Program-made: the position numbers and the translations under genes
Shown here: positions 1,781 through 63,998 of the stretch, in pieces
Layout of the letters: every line of letters starts with the position of its first letter
Numbering within the stretch: the first letter of the stretch is position 1
Notes under the pieces: model-generated
The model's input: only the letters and a program-made list of their open reading frames with translations
What the model was told of the DNA's origin: nothing
Database searches by the model: none
Source: Candidatus Omnitrophota bacterium
GTDB taxonomy: Bacteria > Omnitrophota > Gorgyraeia > B26-G9
Direction of reading: 5' to 3'
Assembly (NCBI GenBank): GCA_043805415.1
Contig: JAZDHZ010000007.1
Coordinates: 93,786-157,785 of the forward strand
Length of the DNA stretch: 64,000 bases

Positions 1781-1803
1781 CTACTATTCGCTATACGCTG
1801 CTT

Positions 1804-5125: not shown

Positions 5126-5128
5126 TAA

Positions 5129-9184: not shown

Positions 9185-9208
9185 TATTTTTTCCTTAACC
9201 TGCTCATT

Positions 9209-9988
9209 TTAAGTAAAATCAGCGAAAAATTTCTTATTATTCCTAAATAAAACAATGCCCAATATCCCAAAGCCAAGGCTTATGCCCAGCATCCAGCCAA
9301 GGGCAAAAAAACCGGGAACTTTAGCATAAAGCAAAATATCCCGGTAAGCGTTTATATACAAGCTCAAGGGATTAAGGTAAAAAAATCCTCGGATATTTTC
9401 CGGAACCAAAGACAAAGGATAAAAAATCGGAGTAGCATAAAACCATACCAGCATAATCAGCTCAATAATATATTTCACATCCCGGTAAAAAGTATGCAAA
9501 GCCGCCACAGACAGGCAAAGCCCAACAATAAATACAGTCTGAAGAATGATTATCAGCGGCAGATAAACCCACGGCCAGCTGGGGAAAATTCTAAAATAAG
9601 CTAAAAACGCGAATAGGAGAAACTGGGAAATAAGAAAATTAAACAGATTCGCGCAAACAACGGAAAGCGGAATCACTTCATAAGGAAAATAAGCTTTTTT
9701 AATCAGACTGGCATTATCGACTATTGAAGTCGCGGCCGCGGTTAAAGAAAAATTCAGAAAAAACCAGGGCAAAAGCGCGCTCAGAAGAAATACCGGATAA
9801 TTGGCAATCTGGATCTTCATAATAAAAGTAAACACCAGGCTGAAAACCAGCATTAAAAGCAAAGGATTGAGCAAAGACCATAGCCAGCCTAAGACCGCTG
9901 ACTTATACTTTATTTTTATTTCTTTTTTAGTCAGGCTGATAATCAAATTGCGGTAAGCATAAATGCTTTTTATATAAGCGTAACTCAT
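9209..9988 (-). CDS. ABC-2 type (Wzm/TagG-like) polysaccharide exporter permease
   Basis: 259 aa, about 6 hydrophobic helices; sits directly upstream of the Wzt-like ATPase; start overlaps the stop of the 9985..11277 gene. Confidence 0.75.
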   Translation of the reverse strand: MSYAYIKSIYAYRNLIISLTKKEIKIKYKSAVLGWLWSLLNPLLLMLVFSLVFTFIMKIQIANYPVFLLSALLPWFFLNFSLTAAATSIVDNASLIKKAYFPYEVIPLSVVCANLFNFLISQFLLFAFLAYFRIFPSWPWVYLPLIIILQTVFIVGLCLSVAALHTFYRDVKYIIELIMLVWFYATPIFYPLSLVPENIRGFFYLNPLSLYINAYRDILLYAKVPGFFALGWMLGISLGFGILGIVLFRNNKKFFADFT

Positions 9989-13262: not shown

Positions 13263-13937
13263 TTATTTAGGCAGGGAAATTGTAGCAGTATAGTCATTTT
13301 TGTAAAATTCAGGGTTTGTTGTTTGTGTGCCCATGCCCATTTCTATGGTAATCAATACTTCTATCTTGCTCGGCGCTCCGTCAGTTCGTGAATCCCAGTC
13401 AATGAATGGAGCTCCGGAGCTGTCAAAAAAAGTAAATTGTAAATCAGTGATATTTTCGGAAAATGGATCGCTTGATCCAGTATTAAAATTAAAATCAAAA
13501 CCAACCGGATCTAAGGTTTTTCTACCGTCAGTAACATAAAATCTTTCTAATACATCATCATTTAATTCCGCGGTTCCCTGCCCATCCAGCCAGAATCCAA
13601 CTTCACATAAATCGGATTTATCAGCTTCATTTGGATTTAAAGCAGCAATAAAATAAAGTTCATCGCCAATGCTATCTGTTCTCCATCCGCTGGGAGTGGT
13701 TTTATCAAATCCTAAACAATAAAAATTATTACCTTCTCTAATCACCGCGCTGGAAATCTCTCGAGTCATTCGATCTAAAACAACCCGCGCGATAGTCGTA
13801 GATTTTAAAATATTATCCGCCTTTTTCCAAGCACGCAAAGAAACATTAAAAACCGAATACAAAATCGCTATCAGTAAAGCAAGAATTCCGATAGAAACTA
13901 AAAGCTCAATCAGGGTAAATCCTTTTTTTAAAACCAT
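13263..13937 (-). CDS. Type IV pilin / pseudopilin-like protein (prepilin N-terminal cleavage/methylation domain)
   Basis: N-terminus KKGFTLIELLVSIGILALLIAILYSVF: class III signal with G-1, F+1, E+5 and a hydrophobic helix; start codon overlaps the stop of the upstream 767-aa gene. Confidence 0.7.
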   Translation of the reverse strand: MVLKKGFTLIELLVSIGILALLIAILYSVFNVSLRAWKKADNILKSTTIARVVLDRMTREISSAVIREGNNFYCLGFDKTTPSGWRTDSIGDELYFIAALNPNEADKSDLCEVGFWLDGQGTAELNDDVLERFYVTDGRKTLDPVGFDFNFNTGSSDPFSENITDLQFTFFDSSGAPFIDWDSRTDGAPSKIEVLITIEMGMGTQTTNPEFYKNDYTATISLPK

Positions 13938-31139: not shown

Positions 31140-34100
31140 CTAAATCGCTTGTCCAACTAAAGCCAATCCTGAATTCAAATTAAGATCAGCTGGTTTGATC
31201 ATGCCAAAGGTTAGGGATTGATCAACAATAACTTGCTTAGGACTTTGCGTGTAAATAAAATTTATAAATGAATCAAGCCATACATTAGCAACCACGCCTT
31301 TGGCATCCAGATAATCGCGAAGGCCTTTTTCAGTTTGGAATACTCGTTCGCCGTCAATTTTTACCCCTAGACTTAAGTTAAACAATGACTGCTTGAGTTT
31401 TTCTTTAGCATCTGGGTTAAGGTTGAACACAGCATGAGTTAATTGCTTCCAATATTCATCAGGAACAGCGTCAAGCCCTTGTTGGTCACCATACAAAGGC
31501 ACAAGGTCACCTTTGGCACTGTAAATAATCAAGCGCCCTGACTCTAATGCCGCCATTTCAATAATCTGCTCCTGGCTAAGCTTGCTGGTATCCCAATCAG
31601 TTGTATAACTAATTCCGGTAACACCCATATCCTTCCACTCATCTTTAAACCGATTAAAAGTAGCCTTGGTTCTAAATTGCTGATAAGGAACCTGCATATA
31701 GGCAACCTTGATTTCATCTTTACCCAGATCTTTTTTGATCTGTTCAAGATAAGGCATTGCCAGCTTGAAATTTTCCGGAGTATTAGTTGAAGTGGTTTCA
31801 AGGTATAAGTCATCTGGAGCAATATCAATATCCAGCATCTTTGCCAAAGCATTCATAATCTGATAAATGATTTCTGATTCAGAAAGCGGAATGACTTTTT
31901 TATACTCTGACCTATCGGGCTGAGCATCCAGCACATCAAGATCAACCGGATTTTCCATGCCAGCCAGCTGTAACATTGTTAAATCATCTGTTGAGTTAAT
32001 AACAATATCTTTGTTGATTCTAATATTAAAACCCATTTTCTGCGCTGATTTAAGCAAAGGCAAAGTCAATCTGCCATATCCGCCAGTAAGCAATATTTTC
32101 TTAATTTTCCCTGCTTTGTATAATCGAAGAGTTTCTTTAAATGTACCGATATCATCATTACCGCACAAAAGCAGAACATCAGCGTTTAATTCATTGAATG
32201 TGCTAGATTGTGCGTTAAGCAATGATTTGACAGATATAAGCGTTTCTGTTTGAGGTTGATAAACAGGTTTCGTAGAACTCATAGGTTTTTCTTCTTCAAC
32301 TTTATCTATTGGTTTAACTGGATTTTTGTGTTCTTCTTCTTTTTTTTCATCTTTAGCTATAATTTTTTTTAATCTTTTTTCCACTTTGGCAAGCTCAGCT
32401 TTTTCTCGTTTTAAATCCTTGTCTATTGCTTCTTGTGGCCTACCCACATATCGCCAAGCTGGACCTAAATTTGCATCATATTCACCCCAACCATTCGGAC
32501 CATAAATTGTTTCGCCTGATACATAAGCCCCATCGGGAACAGTACTGTAAACCTTTCTTTCCGGCTCTTCATTTTCAAGTGTTTTAAGTCTTTCTACAAT
32601 TCTGTTTCTTTTACTCAGAAGTCTTCTATTGCGCGTAATTCTTCTGTGAATTAGTGTTACAGCAATCACAATAAATGGAACACCTAAATACCAAGCATCA
32701 GTTGACAACGCAGTCATAGGTAAAATTCCATCCCCTGCCCAGCTAAATTTAGAGCTTAAAGCAATGAGTGCGGGGGCAAGAAGAGCAGGGATAAATAGAG
32801 ACTTTAAAGTGGAGTTTTTATGAAGCCCCTTTCCTTTCTTTGATGCTTTTTCAACTGCTTTAGGATCAGCTTTTTTTGAATCATTACTCCCGTATTCTTT
32901 AAACTTTTCAATCAATTCCCAATTGAAAGAGGATTTGCCCCTTGTATCAAGAATTCCTCCTAGTATTTCCTCAATGCCTTTTACTGCAGCAATCTCTTTT
33001 AAAATTCCATTTTTCAGCATAGGAATTTCTCTCTTTAGCCTATCTCTTAGCGAAAATTTCATTTCATTCTCACGAAAGAAAAAGCTTTTAATTATACTAG
33101 TTTCCTCTTCGTCAAGCTCTATCAAATTTTCTATTCGCGTTAATAGCATTACTCTTTCTTCAATACTCAAATTCTTGATGCGTTGCCTCACATCTAAAGA
33201 GGCAATAAAATAATTATGATTTTCTGCTAATAGCTGTTCATAAAAAACTCTCACGTCATACTCAAGATTAACATTCTCTGTTTCTTTCGATACTTTCGCA
33301 AATATTCTATCTACCTCTTCTCCTCCTAAAAACTTTAGCAATACCGCCGCTGTCATTTGATTCCGCCGGTTAGAATCTAAATCATACCATCTCCATTTAT
33401 ACCCTGAGACAAAAACTTCAATTAAATATTCTCTGATCTGCTTTTCCAATCCTTTTTCCTGGTATTCACGAATTATTTGCTTAGCAATACTGTTCACGCT
33501 TACTCCAAAACTCACATCATTCCGAAAAATTGCCTCATAAAATTTGGCTTTCTCATCTCCTAACCCCGCCAGAACTGATAATACCGCGTAATCCACTTGC
33601 CAATTACCATTATTCAGCATTCTTGTTTTTAGATGTTCCTCTGCTTTTTTATTACCTATTTTACCTAGAGCAAGAATACAATTAATTTGAACATTTGCAG
33701 AAGAATCAATCAAATCCGTGTATTTAGGCCAATGAGCAGAGATATAATTATTTAATAAAGGGTAATCGTTATAGTTATCTTTTTTTGTAGAAGCAAATAT
33801 CAATTCCTCTACAGCTTTTTCACTTCTTAATTCTCCCAATGCCCACGCAACTGCCGCTCTTAATTTATTGGCCGGCAGGCGATCAATCTTAATAGGGTGG
33901 ATGTATCCAAATTCTAGACCCGATTTACCGGTTATATTAACTATCTTAAATGCGTTTAATTGTTTTATTAGAGTGCTCTCTACATTTTTGTGTCTAAGTT
34001 TACTTAGCTTTAAAGCTGCTTGAACCCTGTTTTCTTCCGGCTCATTTTCATTTTCTAAAATAGCAGCCAATTGTTTAAAGCTTTTCATTTCCTTACTTGT

Positions 34101-34715
34101 TTTTAAGAACGCTTCAGCATCACTATCAATGCCCTGATAATCAATAGTAGCTTTACCTATATTTTCAATTTTATTAAAAGCACACCCTGTAAAACCTGAT
34201 ATAATAACAACTGCTGTTAAGAAAACGACCGCTCTTCTTAACGGTGAAGGGACCTTGGCGGTAAATAAAATTGAAAACGCTGCAGTAATGGCTATTATTG
34301 CTGTTATTATTGACAAGTTCACAATAACCATTCCCCCATTTACAAAAACAGAACCTCCAACCAATATAGCCCAAAAATATTTTGAGCTTGTAGTTTTCTT
34401 CACCCCTACCAGTATTGTATTTGCCAACTGGTCTGCAATCTTATTAAATTTCATTTTTGAATTACGCTGTGTTTTGGGAATTTTTTGATTAGCAGTTTTC
34501 TGAACAGCTGCCTTAGAAGTATTCATCTCATAAAGTCTGCTGAAACCCGCATTAAACATCTGCTGTGTGATTTGAACCGGAGCAGCAAGTGTATCGGAAT
34601 TTTTTTGCAGATTAAGTTCTGTGCCCCCTGCCCAGGCGATATCAAGCATTAGAAATGAATTAATTAAAACTAAACATATTAACTTAAACCACAAACAATC
34701 AACTAATTTTTTCAT
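31140..34715 (-). CDS. Large signal-peptide, multi-TM, HEAT/PBS-repeat protein with a C-terminal DUF218 (YdcF/ElyC/SanA)-like domain (1191 aa)
   Basis: N-terminus ...FLMLDIAWA|GGTEL; HEAT-like repeats (ALGELRSEKAVEELI, ALGKIGNKKAEEHL, LAGLGDEKAKF); TM segments; K/E-rich coiled coil; DVLLLCGNDDIGTFKETLRLYKAGKIKKILLTGGYG resembles DUF218. Confidence 0.45.
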   Translation of the reverse strand: MKKLVDCLWFKLICLVLINSFLMLDIAWAGGTELNLQKNSDTLAAPVQITQQMFNAGFSRLYEMNTSKAAVQKTANQKIPKTQRNSKMKFNKIADQLANTILVGVKKTTSSKYFWAILVGGSVFVNGGMVIVNLSIITAIIAITAAFSILFTAKVPSPLRRAVVFLTAVVIISGFTGCAFNKIENIGKATIDYQGIDSDAEAFLKTSKEMKSFKQLAAILENENEPEENRVQAALKLSKLRHKNVESTLIKQLNAFKIVNITGKSGLEFGYIHPIKIDRLPANKLRAAVAWALGELRSEKAVEELIFASTKKDNYNDYPLLNNYISAHWPKYTDLIDSSANVQINCILALGKIGNKKAEEHLKTRMLNNGNWQVDYAVLSVLAGLGDEKAKFYEAIFRNDVSFGVSVNSIAKQIIREYQEKGLEKQIREYLIEVFVSGYKWRWYDLDSNRRNQMTAAVLLKFLGGEEVDRIFAKVSKETENVNLEYDVRVFYEQLLAENHNYFIASLDVRQRIKNLSIEERVMLLTRIENLIELDEEETSIIKSFFFRENEMKFSLRDRLKREIPMLKNGILKEIAAVKGIEEILGGILDTRGKSSFNWELIEKFKEYGSNDSKKADPKAVEKASKKGKGLHKNSTLKSLFIPALLAPALIALSSKFSWAGDGILPMTALSTDAWYLGVPFIVIAVTLIHRRITRNRRLLSKRNRIVERLKTLENEEPERKVYSTVPDGAYVSGETIYGPNGWGEYDANLGPAWRYVGRPQEAIDKDLKREKAELAKVEKRLKKIIAKDEKKEEEHKNPVKPIDKVEEEKPMSSTKPVYQPQTETLISVKSLLNAQSSTFNELNADVLLLCGNDDIGTFKETLRLYKAGKIKKILLTGGYGRLTLPLLKSAQKMGFNIRINKDIVINSTDDLTMLQLAGMENPVDLDVLDAQPDRSEYKKVIPLSESEIIYQIMNALAKMLDIDIAPDDLYLETTSTNTPENFKLAMPYLEQIKKDLGKDEIKVAYMQVPYQQFRTKATFNRFKDEWKDMGVTGISYTTDWDTSKLSQEQIIEMAALESGRLIIYSAKGDLVPLYGDQQGLDAVPDEYWKQLTHAVFNLNPDAKEKLKQSLFNLSLGVKIDGERVFQTEKGLRDYLDAKGVVANVWLDSFINFIYTQSPKQVIVDQSLTFGMIKPADLNLNSGLALVGQAI

Positions 34716-35159: not shown

Positions 35160-36059
35160 TTATTCTGTTACCAGTTCAAACCTAGTCCCACTTTCCATAG
35201 CGTTATTAATTCTGGTAAGAGCCTTATCTAGACTGAAATTATCCCGCTCATTGAGCGACAAAACATCAAATAGCTCTGCTTCAATGCGTGAATTCATATC
35301 TTTTATTTCTTCATCTGATCTGCCAAGATTTTTTCTGTATTTAACTAAATCTGTATCGGCATCATCCTCCTGAAGTTTCTTTTTAAACAGCGTCATTACT
35401 TCTTTATCTGCTAAATCAAACTTATTGCGAAGAATAAAGTCAATATCGTAGAAATCGCGCGGAGCTATAATTTGACGTGTCGCGCCTGCGCGTAACTTTT
35501 CTGAAACAATCTCTTTTAGTGACATACACTGAATCTCGCCACTAGCAAACAATGGCTCATCAGTAAAAGAGTGTTTGAATTTATGCTGTACCGCTCTTTT
35601 TTCAGTGTCTAAAATAGGGTTAAATTTCAAACCTACTTCAAATTTAATTGTCTGCTCAGAAAGTGTTGTAACAGAATCATATACGATATGGTACACATAC
35701 TGCTTTGATTCATTTCTCCCGGGATTACCGGCATCATCAATCCTCATGCTAAATTGCTTCACAAACCTCTCAATACCATTCTTAACCGGCTGGATGCATT
35801 TACGCCTCTCACCTCGTGTAGCTTGATACCGCGGAAGCATCATACTAAAATCAAGATCTTCACTCAAACGATAATATGAATAATATATCTTATTGAGACA
35901 GGTTCCTCCTTTAAAAATAAGATTACCTGACAATTCATGTATACGAGAAAGCAGTAATGTTAAATAATAATCTTTTTCTATCAGCGGCGCATAAAATCCC
36001 GTTAATGACGCGATACGATCAATAAGAATAAAAAATTGTTCTTTATCTTCGTGTATCAT
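35160..36059 (-). CDS. abiEii: AbiEii-family nucleotidyltransferase toxin (type IV TA / abortive-infection AbiE system)
   Basis: N-terminal hallmark IEKDYYLTLLL...LIFKGGTCLNKIYY...RLSEDLDF (KDYxL...FKGGTxL...R.SEDxDF); ~300 aa; overlaps the upstream AbiEi gene by 17 nt. Confidence 0.75.
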   Translation of the reverse strand: MIHEDKEQFFILIDRIASLTGFYAPLIEKDYYLTLLLSRIHELSGNLIFKGGTCLNKIYYSYYRLSEDLDFSMMLPRYQATRGERRKCIQPVKNGIERFVKQFSMRIDDAGNPGRNESKQYVYHIVYDSVTTLSEQTIKFEVGLKFNPILDTEKRAVQHKFKHSFTDEPLFASGEIQCMSLKEIVSEKLRAGATRQIIAPRDFYDIDFILRNKFDLADKEVMTLFKKKLQEDDADTDLVKYRKNLGRSDEEIKDMNSRIEAELFDVLSLNERDNFSLDKALTRINNAMESGTRFELVTE

Positions 36060-36856
36060 TAATAATAATTCTCCATTTTTTATTTAACGTACCTTTTCTT
36101 GATTCTGACAATGAGGCAATCGACGTTTCTTTGACACTTTTTACAAGTGATCTCAATAATAGATCACTAATTCCACATTTTTCCAATATGTACCCCATAT
36201 ACTTACGAGTCTTTATATTGGGAAACCGAGTCGCATAGTCAATAAGCGTTTTTATGTCACATTTTTTTTCTGTTACAAACCTCTCTACTATCTGGCCTGC
36301 GGCAAAAAAACCGCCTACCGGCTTATTAAAATAAATAAGATCAACCAATGTTTTTTCTTTTGAACTAATGCAAACATTAACGCCTCTTATAATTTTTTTT
36401 TTCAATCCCATACATTTGAGCCCGAGACACATTTATAAACTTAAACAGAATTCCCGCAATCTTTTTTTCCTTGCTCAAGCTCGTATTAAGAACATACACT
36501 TTCTGGAATTGCTGATCTGTAAAGCTGTAATAGTTAAACATTGTAGAATATCCAATATAGTAATCCCCCTTAGGAAAATAAATTGATGGTATTATAAACT
36601 CACTAATACGGCGTCCTGTAGGAACTGATTCAAGAGGAACAAATATATATATGCCGCTTTTAATAGGAATTAAAATATTTTTTGTTTTTAACCTGAATAC
36701 AAGTTGTCTTCTATAAGAAAAATCAGCAGGCAAAAAAGCATCCAACTCTTTTGCTGTTACGATCTCTTTTTTTTCATAGACAAGCCGCGCGATAAGTTCT
36801 GTCTCTGTTTGACTAAGCGAACTAAATGTTTTTTTATTTGGCATATGTACCCCCAC
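36043..36856 (-). pseudogene. abiEi: AbiEi-family antitoxin/transcriptional regulator, interrupted by a -1/+1 frameshift in an A10 homopolymer (T-run 36393..36402 on the plus strand)
   Basis: Two overlapping ORFs: 36377..36856 (N-terminal wHTH-like LVFRLKTKNILIPIKSGIYIFV) and 36043..36432 (C-terminal ...CISSKEKTLVDLIYF...). Removing one A from GAAAAAAAAAAT fuses them into one ~270-aa AbiEi (GIEKK|IIRGVNVCISS). Confidence 0.65.
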
Positions 36857-37539: not shown

Positions 37540-37899
37540 CTAATTTATATTTAATAATTTACCCAGATATTCATTAACCAACTGTTTATCCTGGTCGTCT
37601 TTCCACCAGGAAAAACTAACTCCGGTTCGATACATTCCAGCATCTTCGGTTATCCACTCCACCTTACCGAAAACCCGGATTGTACTAATATCCTTGCTCA
37701 GGCGCAAGTCAATGCTTAACGGCGTGCCAATCGGTATTCTTTCATTGGAAACCACTCCCGCGCCAACCATGCTGATATCGCGCATGGAATATTCTGCGCT
37801 GTTCCAAAACCTGAACCATACCTGAGGGTCAAGCGGGCGAAGACTTATTGAACTGTTCTTAGCTTCCTTGCGTGCGCTATTGCGTCTATCCTTATCCAT
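37540..37899 (-). CDS. Small stand-alone PilZ-domain protein (paralog of 12626..13009)
   Basis: RRNSAR (RxxxR-like) and DISMVG (DxSxxG) motifs; collinear with the 12626..13009 protein. Confidence 0.6.
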   Translation of the reverse strand: MDKDRRNSARKEAKNSSISLRPLDPQVWFRFWNSAEYSMRDISMVGAGVVSNERIPIGTPLSIDLRLSKDISTIRVFGKVEWITEDAGMYRTGVSFSWWKDDQDKQLVNEYLGKLLNIN

Positions 37900-38024: not shown

Positions 38025-41000
38025 TTAAATCGCATTATTAACAAGCTCTCTGGTATCTTCCGGTGATAACTTCTTATCGACACCAGGGATTGCAGCATCC
38101 AAAGCATCTACAGTTGCCGGATCAGCCTCAGGCTTAATTATCATTTCTGGGGTTAAGTCAATTATCTCTTCCCCTTCTTTAGCATCAGGCTTACCGTCTT
38201 TTACCATATCAGTAGGCTCAGTTACTTCTTCCTCTGAAGCCTGGATTTCTGCCGGTGCCGGAGAGATAGCTTCATCGTTTATTGATGATGTTTCATTTTT
38301 AAGAGTATAAGTTAACAATTCTGCCTTGGCTAAAATACCTGTTAAAGTGCGGATTGCCTTTTCAATGCCTTGTTGTTCCCAATATTGTGTTAACCTGTAA
38401 GAATCTTCACGGAATTTTTCGATTTGTTTACCTGCATACTCCATAATATCCTGAGGAGTATTTAGTTTTTTTCTATCTCCCCCATCAAAAATAATATGCA
38501 TACTATCATAGTATCCAATTCTGTCTGATAACTCACCCCACATAAAATATATTTCTTGGTTAAGCGCTTCTATTTTCTGCTCCAGACTTTGCTCGGGCTT
38601 TGTTTCCTCAGAAGAAACCTCAGCAGCTTGTTCTGTAGCATCAGCTGGCTCCACATTTTGATCTGCGCTTACTGCGGAATCTGTTTCATCTGTATTATAA
38701 CTTGTATCAGTTACCGCAGCAGGCAGATTATTTCCACCATTTTGATCCTGCGGACCATTAGGTGGCTTACTATCAGTAGATGATTGACCTTGGCTAGCAG
38801 CAGCTTCTTGGGCTTTAGCCTGCTCAGCTTTCTCTTTATCCTCTTGTTGTTTTCTAATCTTAGTATCTTCCGCTTCACCAAGTTTCTTAATTTCAGTCTG
38901 TATGGCGATACCTAATTTATTATCCACGTCTTTTTTAATCTGCACAGAATTACGCTTTGCAGCAAACATCATATCTTTTGCTGCCTGATCATCTCCTGCC
39001 AAATCCTTATAGCTTTCTTTAACTTCGTCCGGCATAATTGCCCACAAAGAATCTTTAAGCAGTTTTTCATTACTTTCCTTGCTTATTAAATTATACATTT
39101 GCAATGCCGTTTCGCTATTTTTGCTGATCAGCTCCTGGGCGATCTTGGCTGGTTTTGCGCCTTCTCTGTATTCTTCAATCTGCGCTCCATCTACATTCTC
39201 AAAGGTCAGGATTTCATCCTCTGCCTCTACCTGCATCCAGAAAACTATTTTATTAAATAAATAAAGTTTTGCCTGATCTTTATTAAATGCTTGCACAAAA
39301 CCATTTGGAATCATATCCTGAGCAGTCATCAAAGCCAGCAGATCTTCAACTACTTTTTCTTTCGCATCCAAAGCATCATTCCGCGCGCCTCTTATACCTG
39401 TTCTATTCTGTGCAATAAAATCATTTACCGCACTAGTGATAAGAAATTTTCCGTCATAGACTTTACCAAATTGACCAAGATAAACATTTTCAAAATATTC
39501 TTGCATGAGTTTTAAGAGCGATGCTTTTGGATTTTCCTCCTTATTCAAAACATACTTAATATAAGGATCTACGCCAACAGCATTCCAGATCAAATCAATA
39601 TTATCCGGCACCTGCATAGCCAGAATTAATGATTCCATGTTATTTAAAACTAATGCAGGGATATTATCCTGTTTAATATCATTAATCAGATATTTCATGA
39701 GCTGATTCGCAATAATCTCTTTCTGATTGTCTTGATATTTCTCTATTATAGTATTCTGTTTACTTGAGATTGCCTGCTTTAAATTAGTTATTTCATCTTC
39801 AATCGCTTTTTGACGCGAAGCATCTTCTGTTATTTTAAGCTCTTTCTCAAGAGCGCTGAGAAGCTTCATTCTCTGGTCAATTTCTTTATTTTCATTTGCT
39901 CCGGTAGTCAATACTATCATCTGAAAAACAATACGCTCAAGATCATCTCCAGCTTCATTCCATATAACCGCATACAGGTTTTCTCTTAATTTGCTAAGCG
40001 CTGTTTTGTATTTCTTCTCTATTTCTTTTTTCTCTTCATCGCTGCCTGCGGCTTTTAACTGCTTATTGAATGCCTCGTTTAATGTAATCTCCCGCGGGAT
40101 CAGTTCCTTTAACACGTTTTTGTATTTAAATACGATCATAGGCATATCAAAATCAACCACCCTTTGATATTGACTCTTTATTGTTTCATCAGTTTTTTTA
40201 TTTAATTGTTCAAGCAGGTACTTGTTTATTTCCTGTTCATCAAAATTATTAGCCATAAGCAGAAAATATACAGCTTCCTGAGGTAATTGCTGCCAAAGAG
40301 CTTTAATTGATTCCGCTTGATTAGCGATATATTCATCCTGAGATATTTTTGACCCGTCCTTATTCATGTATTGAACGCGGTTATCGATCTCTTTTTGTGT
40401 GAATGCCGATAGTTTTTCCGGTAAAACAATGTTTTCAAAAGCAAATTTATAATTATTAACAAACTGCGCATCAGCAGTAAACAGCTCTGCGAATAAGGCT
40501 TCTGCTGCCTGTTCTTGATCTATTTGATAATCATTTGACCAGAGTTTCTTTTGATCCGCGTCTAATTTGTTCCATATCTCTGTCTTTAATTTATTTTTAA
40601 GCTCTACATCTTTTTGTTTATCCGCTATATATTTACCAATATCGCTTTTAATTCCTTGATATTTCGCATCTAAAAATATCTTGCCCAGAATATCAATCTT
40701 AGACATTTGTTTCGCGGCAATCAGCGCATCTGCAGCTGCTTTTTCCAAACTAAATTTCTCTGTTGTTTCCTTCTGGATTTGAGCACTTTTCGCATCAAAT
40801 TCTTGCGCTTTATTTATTTTCCCTTCTAACTCCGCATTCCGCAAATCCTTAGATCTCTGGAAGAAATAGCTCGGACGCGGACTATAGCGCTGAATAATTC
40901 CTTCAAAAACCAAAAAGCCCAAGAGTAGACCTAATCCCGCTATAAAATTCGGCGCGAATATAAGAATAGCCAGAAACTCAATAATATAACGCGCCGGCCG

Positions 41001-44000
41001 CACCCCGGCATCCTGGGCTTTTTCCCATTTTGCTTCATCATATTCTTGAGCGCTATACTTGGGAGTCATCATCAAGCGCAATGCCGGATATAAAATTGCC
41101 AGTGTCCACAAAGGCGCCGCGAACACGATAAAAGAAGCAAAATAAGAACTGGCCACTAAGGTGGCTACGAATGCTAAACCAAAAATAATATACGGCGCCG
41201 CAAAATAATTTCTGTCAAAAAATTGGCCATCTTTAAATAGCGGGACCCCGTGGGCTTTAAGCCAAGCTTGCTTACCGCGCCACATCGGACGGATATAAAG
41301 ATTTTTAATTCCGTTGAATATTCCGGAGAAGAATGCCTGATCCCACATGCTTTGATCGCGCTCTGACTTCCAGGCATCGCGCAAGGATTGAAATTTTGTC
41401 TTGCCTCTAGACTTCCACAAAGTACTGAACACACTGCCAGCACCTTTTAAAATTCCGGATTCAACTACATAGGTAAGAATATAAGGCCCAAATAACCAGC
41501 CAATCAGCGCGAAGAAATAAAGGAACCAGGTGGAAATAAGCATAGTGGTTACCGGAACAATAAGCATTGTAATCGGCAGGAGTATGGCCGCGATCTTTGC
41601 CGGCCAGGTCGCCAGGCTCTGACGGTAATATTTATTAAAATCCTCGTTCATTGTCTTAAGCCGTACTTCTTTTTCTGTGTAAAGAAATACTGGTCTGGCA
41701 TTAACCCCTTCGGCAATTCCCTGAACCACATAATGAGGAATAAGTATATTAAAGAAAATAAAATTCTTCGCGATCCCGGACAGAGTTACCCATATCCCTT
41801 TAGCATAACTGCCTTCGGATGCAACGTGTGCCCAGTAGGCAGGAAGATTAATCGCTTCAGCAAAGACAAAGCCGACAAATACCCAGAAATAAGGGAAGAC
41901 TAAGGCTAGGAACGGATTGACTGGAGCCAAAAGCCCGGTAAGAATAAGCCCGATGGCTGTAAAGGCAACCACGCATAGAATAACCAGTGGTTTTTTCCAA
42001 TAATGCCAAGCAGAAATAACTGTTCCCCATTTTTCATTCCAAGGGATTATATTACTGCTGATAAAACGCTTAAACTGGCGCCTCATAAGAAACTCCACAC
42101 TGCCGGCAGCCCATTTTGCCAGAGGAACTAATAAATCACTGAGAGACGGCGGCATACGCCATTGGAGTTTCATATATTCCACATGTCTGGTAACCATGCC
42201 GAAAAGCATAAATAGCAAAGCGCTGATCAGATCTTCAGATACATAATCATCCTGCAGCCCTTCGTATTTATACATAAAATCTCTTCGATAAACACCCTTA
42301 CCATAATAACCCAGAGTATCCACAGTTTCCTTAATCCGCATTACCGAACTCTGCCATGCCTTTTCCGCGAGTGCCAGGGCGCGTCCGATTGAATTAAGCT
42401 TTTCCACAAAAATCGTAACTGTAGTCAAAACAATCCCTAATTTGGGATTACGGTTGAATTCTGTTAAGACACGGAACATATTCGGCGTTTCTTCATAATT
42501 AATTTCAAGATGCGTATCCATACCCCAAACAATCTCACCGCGCACATAAGGCTGGGCAACAGCAGCGTCACCATATTTGGAAAAACGGATCTGATCGCCC
42601 TCAAAATCACGAATCTGCCCCTTTGGATCTCCTTTAGCAAGCATATGCGTATATTCACCATTATAGCGCTTAAAATCAAGCAGGAGTTTTCTTACCTGCG
42701 CATCACTTATATTCAGACTCTTAATATCCTCTTCGCTCATGGTATCAAAATTAATATTCAGGAATTGATCGATTGCCGGGCCTTTACTTTTTACCAGATT
42801 ATCTGTGGCAAAAAACTGGAACTTCAAGGTTACCAAACGCTGATATTCTTTGGCGGTTTGCAGATAATAAGACAGTTCATCAGCTGTTATCTGTGCTGCC
42901 TGAACAAACAGTTCTTTTTGCCGAGTATCAAGCGCCTTACCTTGCGCATACATCTGGCTTACAGCTGCCAGCTCTTTGGCTAATAAATCCGTGGAATCAG
43001 ATTCAAAACCCAGAATTCTAAATCTATTTAATATAACATCCAGCTGTGCTTTTGTTTGCTGATAACGATTATTTTGATAAAAATGCTCCACATACTCACG
43101 GTAGCGCTGGCGCATATAATGCTGCGACTGGACCCAGCGCCAGGTTGTCGGCATGCGGTAATTTACCCAATCCTCGATCATGTGAATAATTCCGTCAAAT
43201 ACTTCTATTCCCTGAGGCTGGGTTAGTTTTGCGCGAAGCTGCGCGATCTTTACATCTAAAGCTGCTTTTTCTCTAGAGCCCGGCATTGTTGAAAATAATA
43301 CTACTAATTCTTCCAGCGCAGCCTGATCAGCTGCATTGAGTTTGCCTTTTTCTCTGGTCCAATACTTCTGCAATAGAGCTATTTGGTTTTCATATTCATC
43401 TCTAAACCGTTGCGTCAGATGGTGGAATTTTGACGCCTTTTCCCCTTTTTCTATTCGAATAACCTCATCAAGAAAATAATAGTACTTTTCTCCTCCTCCG
43501 GCTAAAATAAAGATACTGAATACCGGCAGTTTTTCAAAGCCTTCAATGCCAGGCTGGAATCTAAAATAACCAGACATAAACCTGAGCAAACGCTGATTAG
43601 CCTCTTGATTTTTCGGCCTAGACAACTTCATCCGGTCTAACTTTGCTTTTACTGCTTCAGCATCAGTCATCTCATTCGCCGTGAACAGATAATCATTTCG
43701 TTCCTGCTCACTGATCTTTGCCTGTTCAAGCAGATGATTAATCGCGTCGTTCCAGACCTCAACCCTTAATTTACCCGAGAAATCTTCGACTTTCAGCTGA
43801 TTATTATCATCAATAAAAATCTTTTCAAGCCGGCCTTTTAAGCGCTCCGAACGCCAGGTAAATATTCTTCCGGTTAAAGGCGCTATCTTCTTGCTAAAAT
43901 GCACAGTCCAGGCGATAAAAAATGCGCCGATTTCCTTGATCGAAAAATAGGTCAAAGGCAAGAACAGCAAAAACGGCAGAACAGTTATAATGGCAAAACT

Positions 44001-47000
44001 AATTCCAAATCCCAGGCCAAGAGAACTGGTAAGCGAGCTGGCCCAAAGCATTCCGTAACTTCCAACAACATAACCCATAAAAATATTATACAGCACTGTG
44101 ACAATCATTGTCTGGCGCCAAAAACGTTTGGCCTTTAATGTCTTTAAACCAGCTGGGCCTTTTTCCGTGCCTTTGGTCCAGAAACGGTCTTCTTGTCCAA
44201 AATTAAAATTAGGATTATATTCAGAATTAAATTTTTCTATTCTATCTTTATATTCAGAAGGTAATAATTTCAAAAATAAATTAAGATAATCCGGCTGAAA
44301 TACTGTTACAATAAACGCAATAATCACAATCACACTCACCAATAAAACACTTGGAAAGAATAACGAAAGCAATCCACCAATAATAATCGTCGCGACAGTT
44401 GACAAAGCTCCGATAGGGCTAGTAAATTTATTCAGCCAATTAGCAACTTTAGTATTTTTAGCAATAGTCTTATTCGCCAATGACACAAACGGAACCATGA
44501 GTTCCCCAAAGAAGGCGATCCAGCCAATTTTATACATTTTAAGATATGTTTCATTATCTTTCAGGGCTTTATTCACTGCTGGTTTAAGCTTTGTATCCAC
44601 CAAATTCTGTATAAGCTCAGACGCTTTTGCCTCAGCGTCTTTGGCTTCTTTTGGTGTTTCTTTTAGCGGCTTTTTGGGAAGCGCGCCTAGTTCTTTGCTC
44701 AGATCAATATCCAGTTCTTTGATCGGGTCCTCATAATAACGGAACAGATCATCCATATCCTCTTGCCCAAAAAGTATGGTTGGATCAGCCAGCAATCTGC
44801 CGGTTACAGTAACTTCTTTCCTTCTATATCGCTCCAGCTTGCTCTGAATCTGATCAATAATAACCCTTCTCCAGAAACCAGCATGCAAACGCATCAGACT
44901 GACAATCTCGCTTTGTTTATCAACCTTATAAAGCGCATATGATTTGCGCATCAGGTAGCGAATTAATGGTGTACGACCAGATAAAGAACTGCCTAATCCA
45001 TAAGGCTGGCGATAAGGCAGCATAAACACTCTTTCCCACAGCTTAAACCGCAAAAGATTCGGAGTTTTCTCACCTTCAAAAGCCTCACTTTTCATAGCAT
45101 TCGCTTTATCCAGACCGATTAATTCAGGTTCCTCTATCTCAAATTCCTGATCATAAGTACCGCCTTGGATTTGCCTTATTCCATAAGGATTTTTTATTAA
45201 AACAGATAAAATTTCAGCCAGGCGTTCTCTGACGATACGATCGTATTCAGCTGTAAATTCTCCACGTGTATCAATATCAGCAAAATATTTATTGAGGTAT
45301 GGACTAAAAGCCGCGTCTATGCATTCTTCAATAATATAATAATCAATTGCAGAAGGGATTCTCTCATTATTTTGCAGTTTTTGGATAAGATCGTTAATTA
45401 CAGCTTTAAATTGTTCAAGGGTTAATAATCCAAGTCCTTCTTTATCATCTAAAAGGTTTTTAACAATTGAAGCAATCGGCGGAGTAAACATCGCGTCAAA
45501 GGAATCTTTTGGTTCCGGCAGTTTATCAGACAAAACTTTATTAAGTTCTTCAATACCCTTATCCGCGGCTAAAACTATCTCCTTCAGCTCAGCTATTACC
45601 TGCAGTCTTGATTCGCCGGAACGGGGCGGGGCGCGCAAAAGATCGCCTGAGCCGAAAATTGTATTAAGTATTTTATAATCAATACCCTGCTCATTTAAGA
45701 ACTTCTTTGCCTGATCAAGAGTTGCAAATCCTTTTTTCTTAAGATCATTAGCCGGCAATTCCTGAGCAAATGCCGTTGCCGCTGATATTGCTATATCTTT
45801 GTCAACTCCGGCAGCAGTCAACATTTTCTCCAGCTCTTTTTCATTTGTTCTGTTCAGCTGCTGCAGCCTTAAATTCGCATCATCATAGAAATCAGGGATT
45901 ATATCAGCAACCACAATATTATCCAGTATACTTGCCTTGGTTTCCGGATCAACTTCTTTTTTATCAAGAAATTCACCCAGAGCAGCTTCATCCATAAAGC
46001 TTTTTTCTTTGCGTCTTTGGTATACTATTTGGCTTGCTATATATTTTGCATTGGTTTCTGCCTGCGATAAAAGTTCTTCTCTTTGAGCTTCACTCAATTT
46101 ATCATCTTGCGCGGACTGTTCTATTTTTTCCTTATCAAAGATGAGGTTTACAATCTCATCTTCGTTCATGAGATTGATATTGTTCTTGCCTTTTTTCTTT
46201 GCCTTGTCTGCCTTTTTCTTCCAGACCAAGCCAGTAATAACATTAGCACCTACTAAATAAACCGCTAAAACAATAGGAATCACCAACCATGGAAAATAAA
46301 AACTAGTAAATGGAAGTCTGACTTTATAACTAAATACCTGTACAAATTTAAACCCTAAACCTTTGGGGCCAATAGTTACTTCCCGCATTTGACTGTCTTT
46401 ATCAAGATATTTTATTTTTACTCCATCGCCCTGAAGATCATCTTTCTTTTTCTGCTCGTTTGCCTGAGCTAATAATTTCTCAAATAATTTTTCGTCTCTA
46501 AACTTCTCGCCTTCTAACTTAATATGAAACAGTTCCAGTCCGCGTTTGCCCATATTGGCAGTCTGACTGATAACATTATTCTGAAATTTATCAAAATATA
46601 GCCACCAAAGCTGACTATTGATCATCTTTTTGCCTTCAAAAGGCACTGCTTTATCAGAAAAATGCTCTTTTTGCGACAATCCCAAACTCTGATGCATGTT
46701 TGCCCCTTTAATCAGCGGGCTGCCATTGCTTAAAAGCAGTGCTTTCTGTCCGCTTAACGAGGACAACCAGGAGGACAACCAGGACGTGCTGGTTTCGCCA
46801 ACTGAATCGGTAAGCACAAATGTATATGCATTCTGGTCATGAATACTATGATGGATTTCATATGGATGCCAGTTTTTGAGCCCGGCATTAAGATTATCGA
46901 TAACTTCCTCAGGATTATGTGAAGTATCATCACGCAATGTTGCCACCAGGTTCTGGCGCTCATCAAAAACATCGATTCTCCATCTGGGATCTTCACCCAG

Positions 47001-59000: not shown

Positions 59001-62000
59001 AGTTACTTTATCCATCAGCTCTTGGATTCGACTCGCGAACTTATCATCTGATTTAGCGGATATCACAGGAACAGCCGCTGGAGCTGCTCTTAAATTTTTT
59101 TGCTTTGGCGGTAATGGAGGAGGGCCTATTTTTTTACCGCTGTCTATGCCAGGATTCTCGCGTGCCTGCGGCGTCATTAACGCGGCAACATCTTTGTCAA
59201 TATTTAGTGTTAATTCCTTACCGATTACTATCAGCGATCCTTTGATCTTTGAATCTGGATGCTGATTATTATAAATTTCCCGCAATTTTATCCAAAGACT
59301 GGCACTGCCGAATAATTTCTGGGCCAAGCCTCTAAGTGTATCACCCTTTTCAACCACATGTTTCCACTGTTTTTGCTGGAACTCACCAGACTTGGCTTCA
59401 GGAGTAGAAACAGCTAATTGCTTTGCTTCAGGAGTTGATGTATCTAAAGAAACAACTAATTGCTTTGCTTCGGGAGTCAGTAACGCCGCGATTTCTTCAT
59501 TAATGGTTAAAATAAGGCTTTTTCCTAAAATAATCGTTGTGTCTTTGATGGGATTTTCCGGATGCTGCCGGTTGTAAATTTCTTTAAACTTTATCCGAAG
59601 ATCTTGATTGCCGAAAAATTTTTGGGCAATTTTAGAAAGAGTATCGCCTAACTTTACCTCGTGAATTATTCTCTTGCCAACTATGCCATTTACTTGTACA
59701 TTTAACTCTGCGGACTTTGTTCTTTCTTGGTTTTCTCCCTCTACTCCCCCGGCATCAGTCACTACTACTTCTTTTTTAGATATTTTTGCTTTAGCAAAAG
59801 GCCCCACAGGTGCTTGCTTATCGCTTTTTATCGTGGTTGGAGCGGTTTTGGCCAGGGCCTGAGCACGCTTCTCTTCGCTGTAATTAGCGAGCTGATGAAG
59901 ATTCGCGCCAAAAACTTTTTCCGGGTCATTAGCTTCAATGTTAAGAAAGTCCTGATAATTTTGTTCCTGATTTTTATGATTAATCTTTTTATCTGATTCG
60001 CGCATTTCAAAATGCAGATGGTCATTTATCAGATCCGCGGCATTGCCAGTCTTTCCTACCCTGGCAATCGGCGTATTCCAATTAACTTTATCCCCGATCT
60101 TTACCAGATTTTCACTATTATGCGCGGCTGTCGCATAAAAATACGTCTTACCGCCTTTGCTATTACTTACTTCGTGCCTGACAATAACCAGATTCCCATA
60201 ACCCGTACCTTCTCCGGCAAAAATAACCTCACCAGGCGCTACCGCATAGGCAATCTGGTGACTTTCTTCCCCTGTCTTGCCTGCTATCTGCGGCATATTA
60301 AAGTCAAACCCCTTGTGCTCGCGCGCACCCTTTCCTCTGGGAGCTCCGAACCCGGATACCGGGGTGGTTGTATATTTGCATTTTATCGGCAAACGGAACT
60401 GCTGCAGGAACTGCTCTAAAGGCGTGGCACTGACAATTCCCGCTAATATGTCTATTTCCGGAGTTTTGATATTAAGAGGCTGCTGCTGAGTATTGATTGA
60501 AGCCAACATAAGATCAGGCTTCATTGCCTGAGCAGCTAGGTCAGTATAATGCGCTTTGATTGCTTCCGGCAGGTTTTCTTCAAGTTTTACATTAGCAGTA
60601 TTATACGGCTTTTGCGCGTTTTGGCTATCTGATGCTGCTGCTAAAGTCGGCACAGAAGCAAGCATACTTGCTCCCATAAACGGCATAATCGAAACCTGTA
60701 AAGCTTTGGTAAGTTTTTCCGGATTTGTGGCAATACCCAATAATCTATTTAATCCCACCTTAGCCAGATTAAGCTCAACCAATAAAGCAGTGACTGCTTT
60801 TCTAAAAGCAGGACGCTGCTGAGCAGTTAAAGCCTCAGCAGGAATCTTGGCAACCATATGCTTTATTTCAGCGCTGGAGAAAAAACTGCCGTCATTGGGG
60901 CTGGAATTCTGTACCGCGGTAAGAAAAGTCCGCAGCATTTTGTCTTTTTCCGCCATGCCGTTCAGCAGATTATAAGCTAAATCAGTGGGATTGTGGGAAC
61001 TTGCTACCTCTTGTTTAAACTGATTAATAACTATACCGATATTATCGGAAAAGTCACTAAGTCCCACATTATTCAGCTGAGACTGTATCCCGGAAAAGTT
61101 TTTTAGTTTATGTTTAGCCAAAGACGAATAGTCTGTAGGGGTTTTTGAAATTTTTGATATAAACCGCTTGGAAATAAAAGTAAAACCGCCGGCCAAAGCA
61201 ATAAGCGGCAGCAGAGCAATTAACTTTGCCCCTAATATCGGAACTCCTACGGTAATCAGCGGAGCAATCCATCCGCCGACAAATAATAAGGCTAATCCCA
61301 TAATCGAACCAGTAGTAATCATAACCATTCGGGATTGAAGCGCGGAAGCGCGAGCCATTGACATAAGCGTAAATATTGTTTGCTTAGATTTTTTTGCTTT
61401 GCCGTCAAATCCAACTTCCTGCCTAGCAATTTTCCGCGCGGTAGAATATTGCGCTTTAAAAAACATTATCCCTTGTAAAGAAAATAAGCCGGTAACTAAA
61501 AGTCCAACCGCCTGAAGCAGGCTGCTGCCCTGCATCACTCCGGTACTCATAGCAATTCTAATTGAATCAAATACCTGAACTCCCAGAAGCGGAACAATGC
61601 CTAAAACAATCGCCGCGCTGGCAGCGATTCCGGCAACAAATCCCAGCAAAGGAACCCAGCCTTTAACCGCGATATTATCACTGCTGCGGGCAAATATTTT
61701 TCTGGCGATCAGCATACTCACCGCGATCGCGGACATGCCGGCAATAACCGGCAAACTAAAACTTCCGCTGGCAACAAAACCAAAAGCATACAGACCTAAA
61801 GTAACTAAAGAACCAAAAATTCCACCTTGGAAAAATCTTTTCGCGCTAGTCATCGGCAGCATGGGAGCGGATTTTAAATCTTTACGGCTGGTAAACAGCA
61901 AGAGAGTTGATGAGATTACCCCGACAACCCCCAATACTGCTGATGCCAGCAATACTGTACTTCCAATACTCCCGGTAATAAGCGTTGCTGAACCAATATA

Positions 62001-63998
62001 GGAAAAAAGCGTCATTGCCGCGACAAAAGGAGCAAAAGAAGCAGTTGTGGTAAGTGTTTTTCGCCAAGCAGTTAATCCTACTGTTTTTCCAATATCTTTT
62101 AAAGACTGCCGATGACCAATAGCAATCGCATCAGCCATTTTAGTGATCGTAGAATCAACTTGCGATAATCTTTTTACTTGGGAATTAAGCGCCCAGCCAA
62201 TCATTACTGCCCCGATAGTCACCGCCACCAAAACAACCGGGCCTAAACCAAGAAACAAACTAACCGCGCTGCCAATAACCGGCAAACCAACCGCGCTGCC
62301 GACACCGCCGATACTTAGAGCTTTAAATACCACCCCGATTAAAACAGCAAGCGCGATATTTGCCGAGATCGCGACTGAAGCAGGAATTATCTTTACAGCT
62401 AATAATTTCACGCGTTCTGAAAAAGGAATTCGATTAATTTTCGCGGCTTCTGCTTGAGCTTGATTCATCTCTCCATCTGTCGGAGCTTGCTGAGCAAGCT
62501 GAAAAGCAAGCCCAATAACATTTTTACCCAGATCATTTGCTGTATCTTGTTTCGTCTGTTCAAAAGCAGCCGCTGTTATCCGCTTGATTTCCGCGTAAAT
62601 CATCTGCGGCCTTATAAACTGTTTCTGATATCCGGAACGTGAAGATATTTTCTCTAATCTATGTTTTTTCCATTCAGATTCACTTAAAAACCGCATCCAT
62701 TTCTGATCAACAATTTCTAAAGCGCGGTTTTTAAGAATATCTTCTATAATCGCGAACAAAGCTTTTTCCAGATTGTAATCAGCAGCTTCCAAAGCGCTAT
62801 TTATTGTTTGGGCTTCTATATTACTTAATCCAAAGTCATTGTTTAAAATTTCATTTATGATTAATTCATATTGAATTTCCTGTCCAAGATCAACTCTATC
62901 ACTAATCGCCTGAGCGATTTTTTCCTTGATTGATTCAATAACATTTCGCGGGATGCCCAGCGCCGTTAAATCCCCAGTAACTATGTTTCTTCTAAACATT
63001 ACATGCTCTCTGGCAAATCCTTGACCTTTGCCCGCGCCGCTGGCCTCTTGCCACAAGAACTCACCAAAAGATTTTTGTTCTTTCTCCATGTTCTGTTTAC
63101 TATCATTAATACTTTTTCGAATTGCCGAAACAACCTTCTGGCTCTGATTAGCTGACTTAGGATCATTAGTCATGATAAACGTATGCGGCTTACCAACACT
63201 AACCTTGCTGGTTAAATAAGCTAATTTCTCGGAAATAAGCTCTTTATAATTTAAAAAATCTTCCGGCGACCAGAACCCAAAAAAGAAACCTTCTCTGCCA
63301 TCTCGTCCGCTGCGGCCTCTTAACTGAATATCTGTTTCTTCAGAGGCATCGGCACTTAATGACATAACCACCATTTTATCGCCTTTAAAATCAACTCCGC
63401 GTCCGGATATATTAGTGGATACAATAATTACTTTACTATTTTTAGAAAGCTCTTCGACCTTGTCTTTTAACATTTTTGTATCTGAAGTGGCTTCATGATT
63501 TTTAGAAACAAATTCAATAATAACATTGTCCACAGCATTATCCGCGATCAGCGAATCCAAATCATCCAAAGTCACATTTTCAATTTCATTGCCTTTTGCA
63601 TCAGTAATCTTTCCCTCCTGAGTAATCCGCGCGATATTCCGCCGCGCCATGGCCGGTTTAGCCAAAAGTTTATCCGTAAAACTTGCTACCTGATTTTCAT
63701 CATCACAGCGGACAAGTACAGCTCCGGCTTGTTCAGGAAGTCCCCAATCAGACATTTTCCTTGTCGCGCTTTGATCTGTCTTTAGAACAACTATCGCGTC
63801 AATCGCGTTTCCGATTGACTCTTCTTGATCAGAACTCAGAATAATCTGTTCTTTTCTTTTTGAAACCTTATCTAATCCGCTAAGATCTTTAAACTCTAAT
63901 CCATAATTATCAGCTGTCTTCTGTCCAATGGTAGCAGAAGCAGCGCTAATTCCGGAAACAAGCCCCAAATTATCACTCAAAATTACCGGCAAAATCAT
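38025..63998 (-). CDS. Giant multidomain membrane-associated protein, partial (>8657 aa); the N-terminus lies beyond the window end
   Basis: A 25,974-nt ORF without stops in AT-rich DNA. Contains a SecA-like ATPase region, four or more TM clusters, an M23 peptidase, two LysM domains, seven or more ~190-aa tandem repeats, a Pro-rich linker and an acidic low-complexity C-terminal tail. Confidence 0.85.
   Translation of the reverse strand: [8657 protein letters not shown]
48900..52770 (-). repeat. Region of giant ORF encoding seven or more tandem ~190-aa repeats (G-[AV]-[MS]-[IV]-GET-[HY]-[LT]-Y ... L-x-W-[QE]-[EQ]-[ILV]-[KD]-D-N-[LKF]-G-R ... F-[YF]-Y)
   Basis: Repeat units visible in translation: [133 protein letters not shown], each preceded by a G(A/V)(M/S)(V/I)GETYLYD-like block. 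Confidence 0.6.
59210..59670 (-). other. Domains in giant ORF: two LysM peptidoglycan-binding modules separated by a TPEAKQL-repeat linker
   Basis: [52 protein letters not shown] and [52 protein letters not shown]. Confidence 0.65.
59990..60380 (-). other. Domain in giant ORF: M23/LytM-family metallopeptidase
   Basis: KGFDFNMP...YGNLVIVRH...INDHLHFE; the HxH motif is encoded at 60005..60019 (plus strand ttcaaaatgcagatg). Confidence 0.7.
62440..63998 (-). other. Domain in giant ORF: SecA-like ATPase NBD2 plus helical scaffold region (aa ~1-520 of the in-window ORF)
   Basis: [14 protein letters not shown] and [23 protein letters not shown] parallel SecA TNMAGRGTDI / [54 protein letters not shown]...Y..E parallels the SecA HSD block [36 protein letters not shown]. 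Confidence 0.55.

Follow-up and report, generated by a model that had tools for sequence, protein, structure and literature searches.

We found that a 64,000-nucleotide stretch of contig JAZDHZ010000007.1 from a Candidatus Omnitrophota bacterium (assembly GCA_043805415.1, positions 93,786 to 157,785; hereafter the window) encodes a giant protein in which a predicted peptidoglycan-cleaving M23 peptidase and two LysM modules lie behind a conserved head made of a SecA-like ATPase, a polytopic membrane domain, a linker and a signal-peptide-like segment. The three elements that had been noted between 59200 and 62410 (the membrane domain, the M23 domain and the LysM pair) were all present there, on the minus strand and inside a single open reading frame (ORF; 38025-63998, minus strand) of 8,657 residues plus stop, which the window edge truncates at the N-terminus. 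The first Met of this ORF corresponds to an internal Met of homologues, and the alignment to proteins P0001 and P0002 runs on upstream of that Met. Homologous ORFs open 550-624 residues upstream of the match, so that approximately 577 N-terminal residues are missing and the full-length protein is estimated from homologues at about 9,200 residues. All residue numbers given here are window-relative, counted from the cut ORF. The structural reading of the original prediction, that predicted peptidoglycan-binding and peptidoglycan-cleaving modules are combined in one giant envelope protein behind a polytopic membrane domain, holds.

The M23 (LytM-type) zinc metallopeptidase domain (residues 1227-1340; 59979-60320, minus strand) gave a match to Pfam PF01551 (cut-off 28.7 bits) of 61.1 bits and E 1.2e-16 that spans positions 2-95 of the 96 in the profile. 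When it was aligned with 145 M23 matches, H1228, D1232, H1275, H1293, H1327 and H1329 fell in columns that were 92-100% conserved. On the minus strand, the HxxxD motif is located at 60303-60317, the catalytic His1293 at 60120-60122 and the HxH motif at 60012-60020. Every zinc ligand and the catalytic His were present, so the complete core that had been claimed for this domain was borne out, and the alignment, which was also inspected for missing catalytic residues, showed none lost. The M23 core was modeled by AlphaFold, on 54 sequences, with a predicted local distance difference test (pLDDT) score of 86-97. By Foldseek, this model resembled LytM, EnvC, DipM and lysostaphin (E 4e-9 to 1e-7; single-domain chains reached target TM-scores of 0.71-0.76), and ShyA, Csd1/2, phi29 gp13 and a cyanophage A4 pre-ejectosome protein were also matched. 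Judged by its residues, the M23 domain in the window has all that an active wall endopeptidase needs, and activity is predicted. Its nearest relatives were found in two other proteins, P0004 (96 bits) and P0005 (92 bits), whereas ordinary M23 proteins scored at most 63 bits. P0004, P0005 and the closest homologous locus, L001, carry a C-x-H motif (GGCVHFE), in contrast to the canonical H-x-H (DHLHFE) of the window. The Cys-x-His site was located at approximately nucleotides 7250-7300 of L001 and near residue 1600 of P0004. This pattern suggests that the relatives with Cys-x-His form a subfamily of M23 whose catalytic site is altered.

Downstream of the peptidase, LysM module 1 (residues 1442-1499; 59502-59675, minus strand), identified by NCBIfam and AlphaFold, is of the Kbp/YgaU type, and LysM module 2 (residues 1543-1600; 59199-59372, minus strand) was recognized by its similarity to module 1 and by AlphaFold. 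No individual stretch was significant against PF01476, but the summed score was 25.6 against a cut-off of 20.9. The best NCBIfam LysM match was a Kbp/YgaU-type model (E 2e-7). The two modules were 52% identical to each other (E 2e-20), and both were predicted to fold as beta-alpha-alpha-beta with pLDDT 81-92. The summed score, the mutual identity and the predicted fold agree with the earlier assignment of two LysM domains. Related LysM pairs occurred in L001 and in P0003, and one related LysM in P0004. P0003, an Omnitrophota fragment, combines a weak SLT match at residues 648-686 with two LysM modules that belong to the special subtype seen in the window; LysM pairs in Omnitrophota seem to accompany either type of wall hydrolase, M23 or SLT. 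A TPEAKQL motif recurring between the LysM modules was also considered as a DNA tandem repeat, and no tandem repeat was found.

The ORF begins, within the window, with the C-terminal part of a SecA-like ATPase (residues 1-536; 62391-63998, minus strand), which has the NBD2 motifs TNISGRGVDF and QLRGRSGRDGREG followed by a helical region. This part contained a Pfam Helicase_C match, and SecA chains in the PDB matched residues 166-301. An NCBIfam SecA profile aligned weakly (32 bits) to residues 189-501 (62496-63434, minus strand) over positions 477-778 of 789, and SecA similarity seems to reach past NBD2 as far as the helical scaffold. According to West-Roberts et al. 2023 (bioRxiv 10.1101/2023.11.21.568195), the SecA domains of giant proteins lack the scaffold and wing domains. 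The window ORF itself holds only the NBD2 and C-terminal SecA part, the SecA DEAD and preprotein-binding portion falling outside the window. In L001, L002 and P0002, the homologues whose N-terminal region was scanned, SecA_DEAD and SecA_PP_bind were found upstream of the part equivalent to the window ORF.

Next to this ATPase is a family-specific polytopic membrane domain (residues 537-942; 61173-62390, minus strand), defined by hydropathy and conserved loops. Its helix cluster had Kyte-Doolittle (KD) 19-mer means of 1.5-2.5 and a combined content of Gly, Ala and Val of 34%, compared with 20% in the whole protein, and six independent homologous loci retain it with 38-80% identity. A transmembrane (TM) cluster rich in these residues is thus present as originally described, although it spans approximately 406 residues and not the proposed 470: residues 943-1102 form a soluble linker, and residues 1103-1124 a separate segment. 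The domain had no match in Pfam, NCBIfam or PDB, and its AlphaFold model, made with a 3-sequence input, had a pLDDT of 47 and was unusable for fold comparison. A SecY-like channel was considered (10 helices, both termini inside, beside a SecA-like motor) but not supported: none of 8 members had a Pfam match at E <=10, and hhalign against an approximate E. coli SecY sequence gave a probability of 0.1%.

The linker of approximately 160 residues (943-1102; 60693-61172, minus strand) is conserved and probably cytoplasmic. Its invariant motifs include DYSxLA, FK..V, P.DG.F.S..EI and LVE(L)NLAK.G..R, and it contains 20 K/R and 12 D/E, with 4 K/R within the first 15 residues. It is followed by H12, a conserved and weakly hydrophobic signal-peptide-like segment (residues 1103-1124, SIMPFMGASMLASVPTLAAASD; 60627-60692, minus strand). 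The consensus MPxMGxSMLASAPxAAVVxxSQ was found in all six sequences reaching that point, with KD values of 1.36-1.80. All six also showed signal-peptide traits when the alignment was read by eye, namely upstream lysines, a short hydrophobic core, a border proline and small residues at -3/-1, in an internal position. Homology to L002, L004, L005 and L006 ends approximately 40 residues past H12, after which these four loci continue with a common coiled-coil module. Because homology to the distant loci stops so soon after H12, we regard the block conserved in the 8-sequence alignment (SecA-like tail, helix cluster, linker and H12) as a unit, the head, and the downstream part as variable cargo. 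H12 is a candidate export signal or anchor at the point where the conserved head gives way to the variable passenger. Separate translation of the passenger from the conserved Met1105 was also examined and not supported, as no convincing Shine-Dalgarno sequence was found upstream.

Topology was derived from the positive-inside rule, applied by hand, and from parity. In all 8 aligned sequences, K/R-rich loops of the membrane domain alternate with loops of 1-23 residues holding 0-2 K/R. The most likely arrangement has 10 crossings in 5 helical hairpins, and both ends face the cytoplasm; the 40 residues 565-604 are counted as one crossing. Since both ends of the cluster are cytoplasmic by the loop charge pattern, the linker was placed in the cytoplasm, and cytoplasmic cluster ends would also suit the ATPase. 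The next clear TM helix is far downstream (residues 5895-5927; 46218-46316, minus strand) and is followed by KKKADKAKKKGK, a KKK-rich C-terminal flank. This flank puts the C-terminal side of the helix in the cytoplasm, and therefore residues up to 5894 outside. With the linker inside and the stretch before residue 5895 outside, an odd number of crossings is required between residues 1103 and 5894. H12 was the only candidate crossing conserved family-wide without charged or amide residues in its hydrophobic core. Crossings at residues 2163-2184 and 2861-2879 were not supported: both stretches include E/N/D and belong to soluble regions that are conserved, in one case to a GH76-like domain. A parallel was found in P0004, where SecA and a single borderline hydrophobic segment (KD 1.43, positive N-flank) precede M23 and LysM. 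From the charge pattern, the KKK flank, H12 and the P0004 parallel, we infer that the M23 and LysM modules are most likely extracytoplasmic.

An exhaustive HMMER search and a GTDB genome scan gave six independent relatives, mostly labeled Omnitrophota. The closest loci were Omnitrophota metagenome-assembled genomes (MAGs) with 55-80% identity, L001 being the closest with 72-80% in the head. The alignment-based genome scan gave 7 loci. With seven lineages, the sample of the family is small. Homologue searches with residues 501-1620 and with the linker alignment found none, whereas the exhaustive search of representative proteins found relatives. A scan of genome contigs with the M23-LysM cassette alone gave no loci, and a metagenome scan gave nothing beyond duplicates of L001 and L006. 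Two of the homologous loci were labeled outside Omnitrophota, L004 (Planctomycetia MAG label) and L006 (Clostridia MAG label), which could reflect errors in binning or classification, or a family that is spread more widely.

Only the window and L001 had M23 and two LysM modules after the head, in both cases with M23 approximately 100 residues past H12; in P0004, M23 lies approximately 500 residues past the TM segment. L002 had an SLT lytic transglycosylase instead (approximately nucleotides 15680-15960, 770 residues past H12), and no wall-related domain was found in L004, L005 and L006 across approximately 3,360 residues. Every wall hydrolase found sits early in its passenger, the readable passengers being at least 3,300 residues long. 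Comparison of these loci indicates that the M23-LysM cassette is specific to a lineage and can be swapped, and that it is no fixed partner of the membrane domain.

One explanation for this arrangement is that the cassette opens the wall of the producer itself for the passenger of approximately 4,800 residues, a reading that we put forward tentatively, as nearly even in our judgment. The conserved head (SecA-like ATPase, membrane domain of about 10 helices, cytoplasmic linker and H12) would export the stretch after H12 up to approximately residue 5894, which differs between lineages. The cassette, as the leading part of the passenger, would reach the periplasm first, where the LysM pair would anchor it on peptidoglycan and M23 would cleave peptide cross-links in the producer's sacculus; the resulting local gap would let the passenger pass or assemble. 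Dedicated wall hydrolases open the wall for flagella and secretion machines, and SLT and M23 domains are interchangeable in flagellar hole-makers of the FlgJ type. The combination of LysM and M23 is characteristic of own-wall enzymes, for example DipM, NlpD and MepM. We favor opening of the own wall because wall hydrolases sit early in the passengers and LysM with M23 is typical of own-wall enzymes, and also because M23/glycosidase swaps are known in flagellar hole-makers and Omnitrophota have a complete peptidoglycan pathway (2026 Omnitrophota preprint). Whether the target is the own or a foreign wall, and what the substrate is, can only be inferred, and the data do not choose between the two roles originally proposed, remodeling of the own wall for insertion of the giant protein and attack on a partner or prey wall.

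Several observations weigh against this reading. The topology depends on rules applied by hand, and H12 of the window is weakly hydrophobic (KD 1.47) and contains two prolines. If signal peptidase cuts H12, the passenger would be anchored at residue 5895 with the cassette as its free distal end, which would suit an attack on another cell. Giant-protein homologues carry an N-terminal signal-like leader before the SecA-like domain, and the simple model leaves this leader unexplained. In addition, the cassette is missing in 4 of the 6 family members readable past H12 (SLT instead in L002; neither in L004, L005 and L006), and wall cutting in cis is therefore no general requirement for export, unless it is supplied in trans. 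Identity between the window and L001 was 47% in M23 and 34% in the preceding stretch, compared with 72-80% in the head and 64% further downstream. Such fast divergence of the cassette fits a surface weapon or relaxed constraint equally well.

The cassette might instead be a weapon, displayed on the surface or released by cleavage, that would bind and cleave peptidoglycan in the bacterium, host or prey, to which the ultra-small Omnitrophota cell attaches. We consider this main rival less than even, but almost as probable as opening of the own wall. Its features are as expected of a host-range module, in that it is lineage-specific, dispensable in relatives, swapped for SLT in L002 and faster evolving than its flanks, although no toxin- or immunity-like partner is visible. 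The conserved AxA/VxA-like site that ends H12 could free the cassette as a distal N-terminus, whereas without cleavage the cassette would be at the membrane-proximal end of the passenger. Two of the Foldseek matches, phi29 gp13 and the cyanophage A4 pre-ejectosome protein, are M23 proteins with which phages puncture cells; on the other side, LysM combined with M23 is usual in own-wall enzymes, though the NCBIfam matches to DipM, NlpD and MepM were weak and at domain level only. In the literature, giant proteins have been framed as tools for attachment or degradation of prey walls, with SLT in some of them (West-Roberts 2023, bioRxiv 10.1101/2023.11.21.568195; Seymour 2023), and LysM in such giant proteins was mentioned by Burroughs et al. 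2025. However, the only cultured relative preys on an archaeon, which has no peptidoglycan (West-Roberts 2023; Seymour 2023).

It is also conceivable, but improbable, that the cassette is not exposed to peptidoglycan or has a role unrelated to the wall, either because H12 is not a crossing and the M23-LysM part stays in the cytoplasm or because M23 processes the giant protein at glycine-rich linkers. The marginal hydrophobicity of H12 would fit this explanation, but parity with the KKK-flanked TM helix at residue 5895 needs one crossing, for which H12 is the sole conserved candidate. Similarly, P0004 has a Gly-rich stretch upstream of M23, yet an N-in segment, borderline hydrophobic, precedes its M23. 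The best LysM model was Kbp/YgaU, and E. coli Kbp is cytoplasmic. However, M23, LysM, GH76 and SLT are, to our knowledge, all extracytoplasmic families. Topology predictions for giant proteins have been called unreliable, and proteolytic processing of these proteins has been proposed (West-Roberts 2023, bioRxiv 10.1101/2023.11.21.568195). Finally, a non-catalytic LytM-type regulator (EnvC-, NlpD- or DipM-like) that activates amidases or autolysins deserves very little credence: the top structural and NCBIfam matches were EnvC, DipM, ActS and NlpD, and in the three closest relatives of this M23 subfamily (L001, P0004 and P0005) C-x-H replaces H-x-H, but the window copy retains H1228, D1232, H1293, H1327 and H1329, the zinc-ligand and catalytic residues that degenerate LytM factors lack.

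We compared the giant protein with known systems. Archaeovorin-type giant proteins have a divergent SecA domain proposed for self-export, many TM helices, occasional SLT and a downstream PilZ gene, and the giant protein of V. archaeovorus has 39,678 residues (West-Roberts et al. 2023, bioRxiv 10.1101/2023.11.21.568195). The window resembles this type in its giant ORF with a divergent SecA-like ATPase and many TM helices, in its relatives from Omnitrophota MAGs, in the presence of a peptidase (M23) together with weak, sub-cut-off GH76 and GT2_3 matches, and in a PilZ gene directly downstream with a pilin-like gene nearby. In contrast, the protein's length of approximately 9,200 residues is below the thresholds of 10,000-30,000 residues used by West-Roberts et al. 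2023, who also do not describe a 10-helix head, a linker or a signal-like boundary. By most criteria, the protein belongs to the published class of Omnitrophota giant proteins; it falls short on length, and its SecA N-domains lie outside the window. No mention of M23 in Omnitrophota giant proteins was found in the main texts searched, which give SLT and generic peptidases; LysM in these proteins appears in Burroughs et al. 2025 alone among those texts, and the supplement of the 2026 Omnitrophota preprint had no M23 or LysM entries.

The relative P0004 (MCG2711626.1), an Omnitrophota protein annotated in GenBank as 'peptidoglycan DD-metalloendopeptidase family protein, partial', shares with the window protein a SecA-like N-terminus, a hydrophobic segment, and then M23 and LysM of the same special subtype (IYN.Q.P..PIK). 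It differs in having a more canonical SecA (240 bits), one hydrophobic segment in place of the 10-helix cluster, approximately 500 residues of coiled coil before M23, C-x-H at the active site and one LysM instead of two. DipM, NlpD, MepM, ShyA and Csd1-3 also combine the LysM and M23 families with the same M23 fold; by analogy with them, the expected substrate would be the peptide cross-link of the own sacculus. Unlike the window protein, these are stand-alone proteins of 250-650 residues with a normal N-terminal signal or lipobox, and the usual domain order in proteins of the DipM/NlpD/MepM type is LysM then M23, whereas M23 comes first in the window. Because the NCBIfam scores were far below the equivalog cut-offs, the window protein is no orthologue of DipM, NlpD, MepM or EnvC. 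A different likeness was seen to FlgJ, VirB1, EtgA, phi29 gp13 and the cyanophage A4 protein, where a large structure that must cross the peptidoglycan incorporates a wall hydrolase or brings one along. As in these trans-envelope hydrolases, glycosidase and M23 modules appear interchangeable (SLT in L002, M23 in the window). However, there was no sequence kinship beyond the M23 fold, and here the hydrolase shares a polypeptide with a SecA-like motor.

A further idea goes beyond the opening of the wall. The head may be a self-contained export device acting in cis, composed of the SecA-like motor, the 10-helix domain, the linker and an internal signal with an AxA-type site, at which interchangeable cargos of several thousand residues are attached; in the window, M23 and the two LysM modules would cut the producer's wall. 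We regard this combined model as unlikely in its entirety. If it were true, one polypeptide would carry its own motor, an internal export signal and a wall-breaching enzyme. How the giant proteins of Omnitrophota are exported and what they do is a recognized puzzle, and the locus is a clearly readable example, with an intact wall endopeptidase and wall-binding modules opening the presumably exported part behind the head. The protein class, the presence of SLT and LysM in such proteins and a GenBank-annotated SecA-M23 relative (P0004) have already been reported. In descriptive terms, the additions to the known class are the border between head and cargo with its signal-like segment, the hairpin topology and the variation between M23, SLT and none at the start of the cargo; the finding alone leaves the current picture unchanged. 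Topology or cleavage near residue 1124 and the wall specificity of the M23-LysM part are testable with small recombinant fragments, which would help separate self-export from predation.

Beyond the cassette, the giant ORF contains four TM clusters by hydropathy, the last three of which lie in the C-terminal third (residues 5895-8657; 38025-46316, minus strand) at residues 5895-5927, 6525-6695 and 7333-7704. A weak GT2_3 glycosyltransferase match at approximately residues 7236-7373 adjoins one of these clusters and is reminiscent of membrane-embedded polysaccharide synthases. Both this match and the weak GH76 match were under the Pfam cut-offs, and a phmmer search of the remaining 7,000 residues against PDB gave no match.

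With regard to neighboring genes, a PilZ-domain gene of 119 residues lies directly downstream of the giant ORF (37540-37899, minus strand; Pfam PilZ E 8.9e-10). A downstream PilZ gene is a locus hallmark of Omnitrophota giant genes (West-Roberts et al. 2023, bioRxiv 10.1101/2023.11.21.568195). Another PilZ domain was found at the N-terminus of a 650-residue protein (16279-18231, minus strand), and the two PilZ proteins hint that the locus is under cyclic di-GMP control, which has been reported for other giant genes of Omnitrophota. A pilin-like N_methyl protein is encoded at 13263-13937. Two large downstream proteins open with a leader of the form ...LLINxFLxLDIAWAGGTEL, the same as that of the giant family, where L001, L002, L005 and L007 have AFLLxDIxWAAGGDLRWL at their N-termini. 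One of these proteins has 1,191 residues with HEAT repeats (31140-34715, minus strand), and the other has 1,422 residues with no Pfam match (26830-31098, minus strand). This leader looks like a lineage-specific signal peptide with an AWA|GG site; its presence in the giant family is odd, as it precedes a SecA-like ATPase that is expected to stay cytoplasmic. The region 35160-36856 (minus strand) contains an AbiEii toxin gene (Pfam E 3e-28), upstream of which are two overlapping small ORFs (36043-36432 and 36377-36856) with no Pfam match that may represent a split or divergent AbiEi antitoxin. A search for contigs encoding the AbiEii protein gave no record. Four radical-SAM genes, two of them with SPASM, stand in a row at 722-12290 (minus strand) and are followed by a 1,351-residue protein with an ABC ATPase domain, an ABC-2 permease, an amine oxidase-like flavoprotein and a GT4 (MraY/WecA-like) transferase; the region 722-12290 may be a peptide- or glycan-modification cluster.

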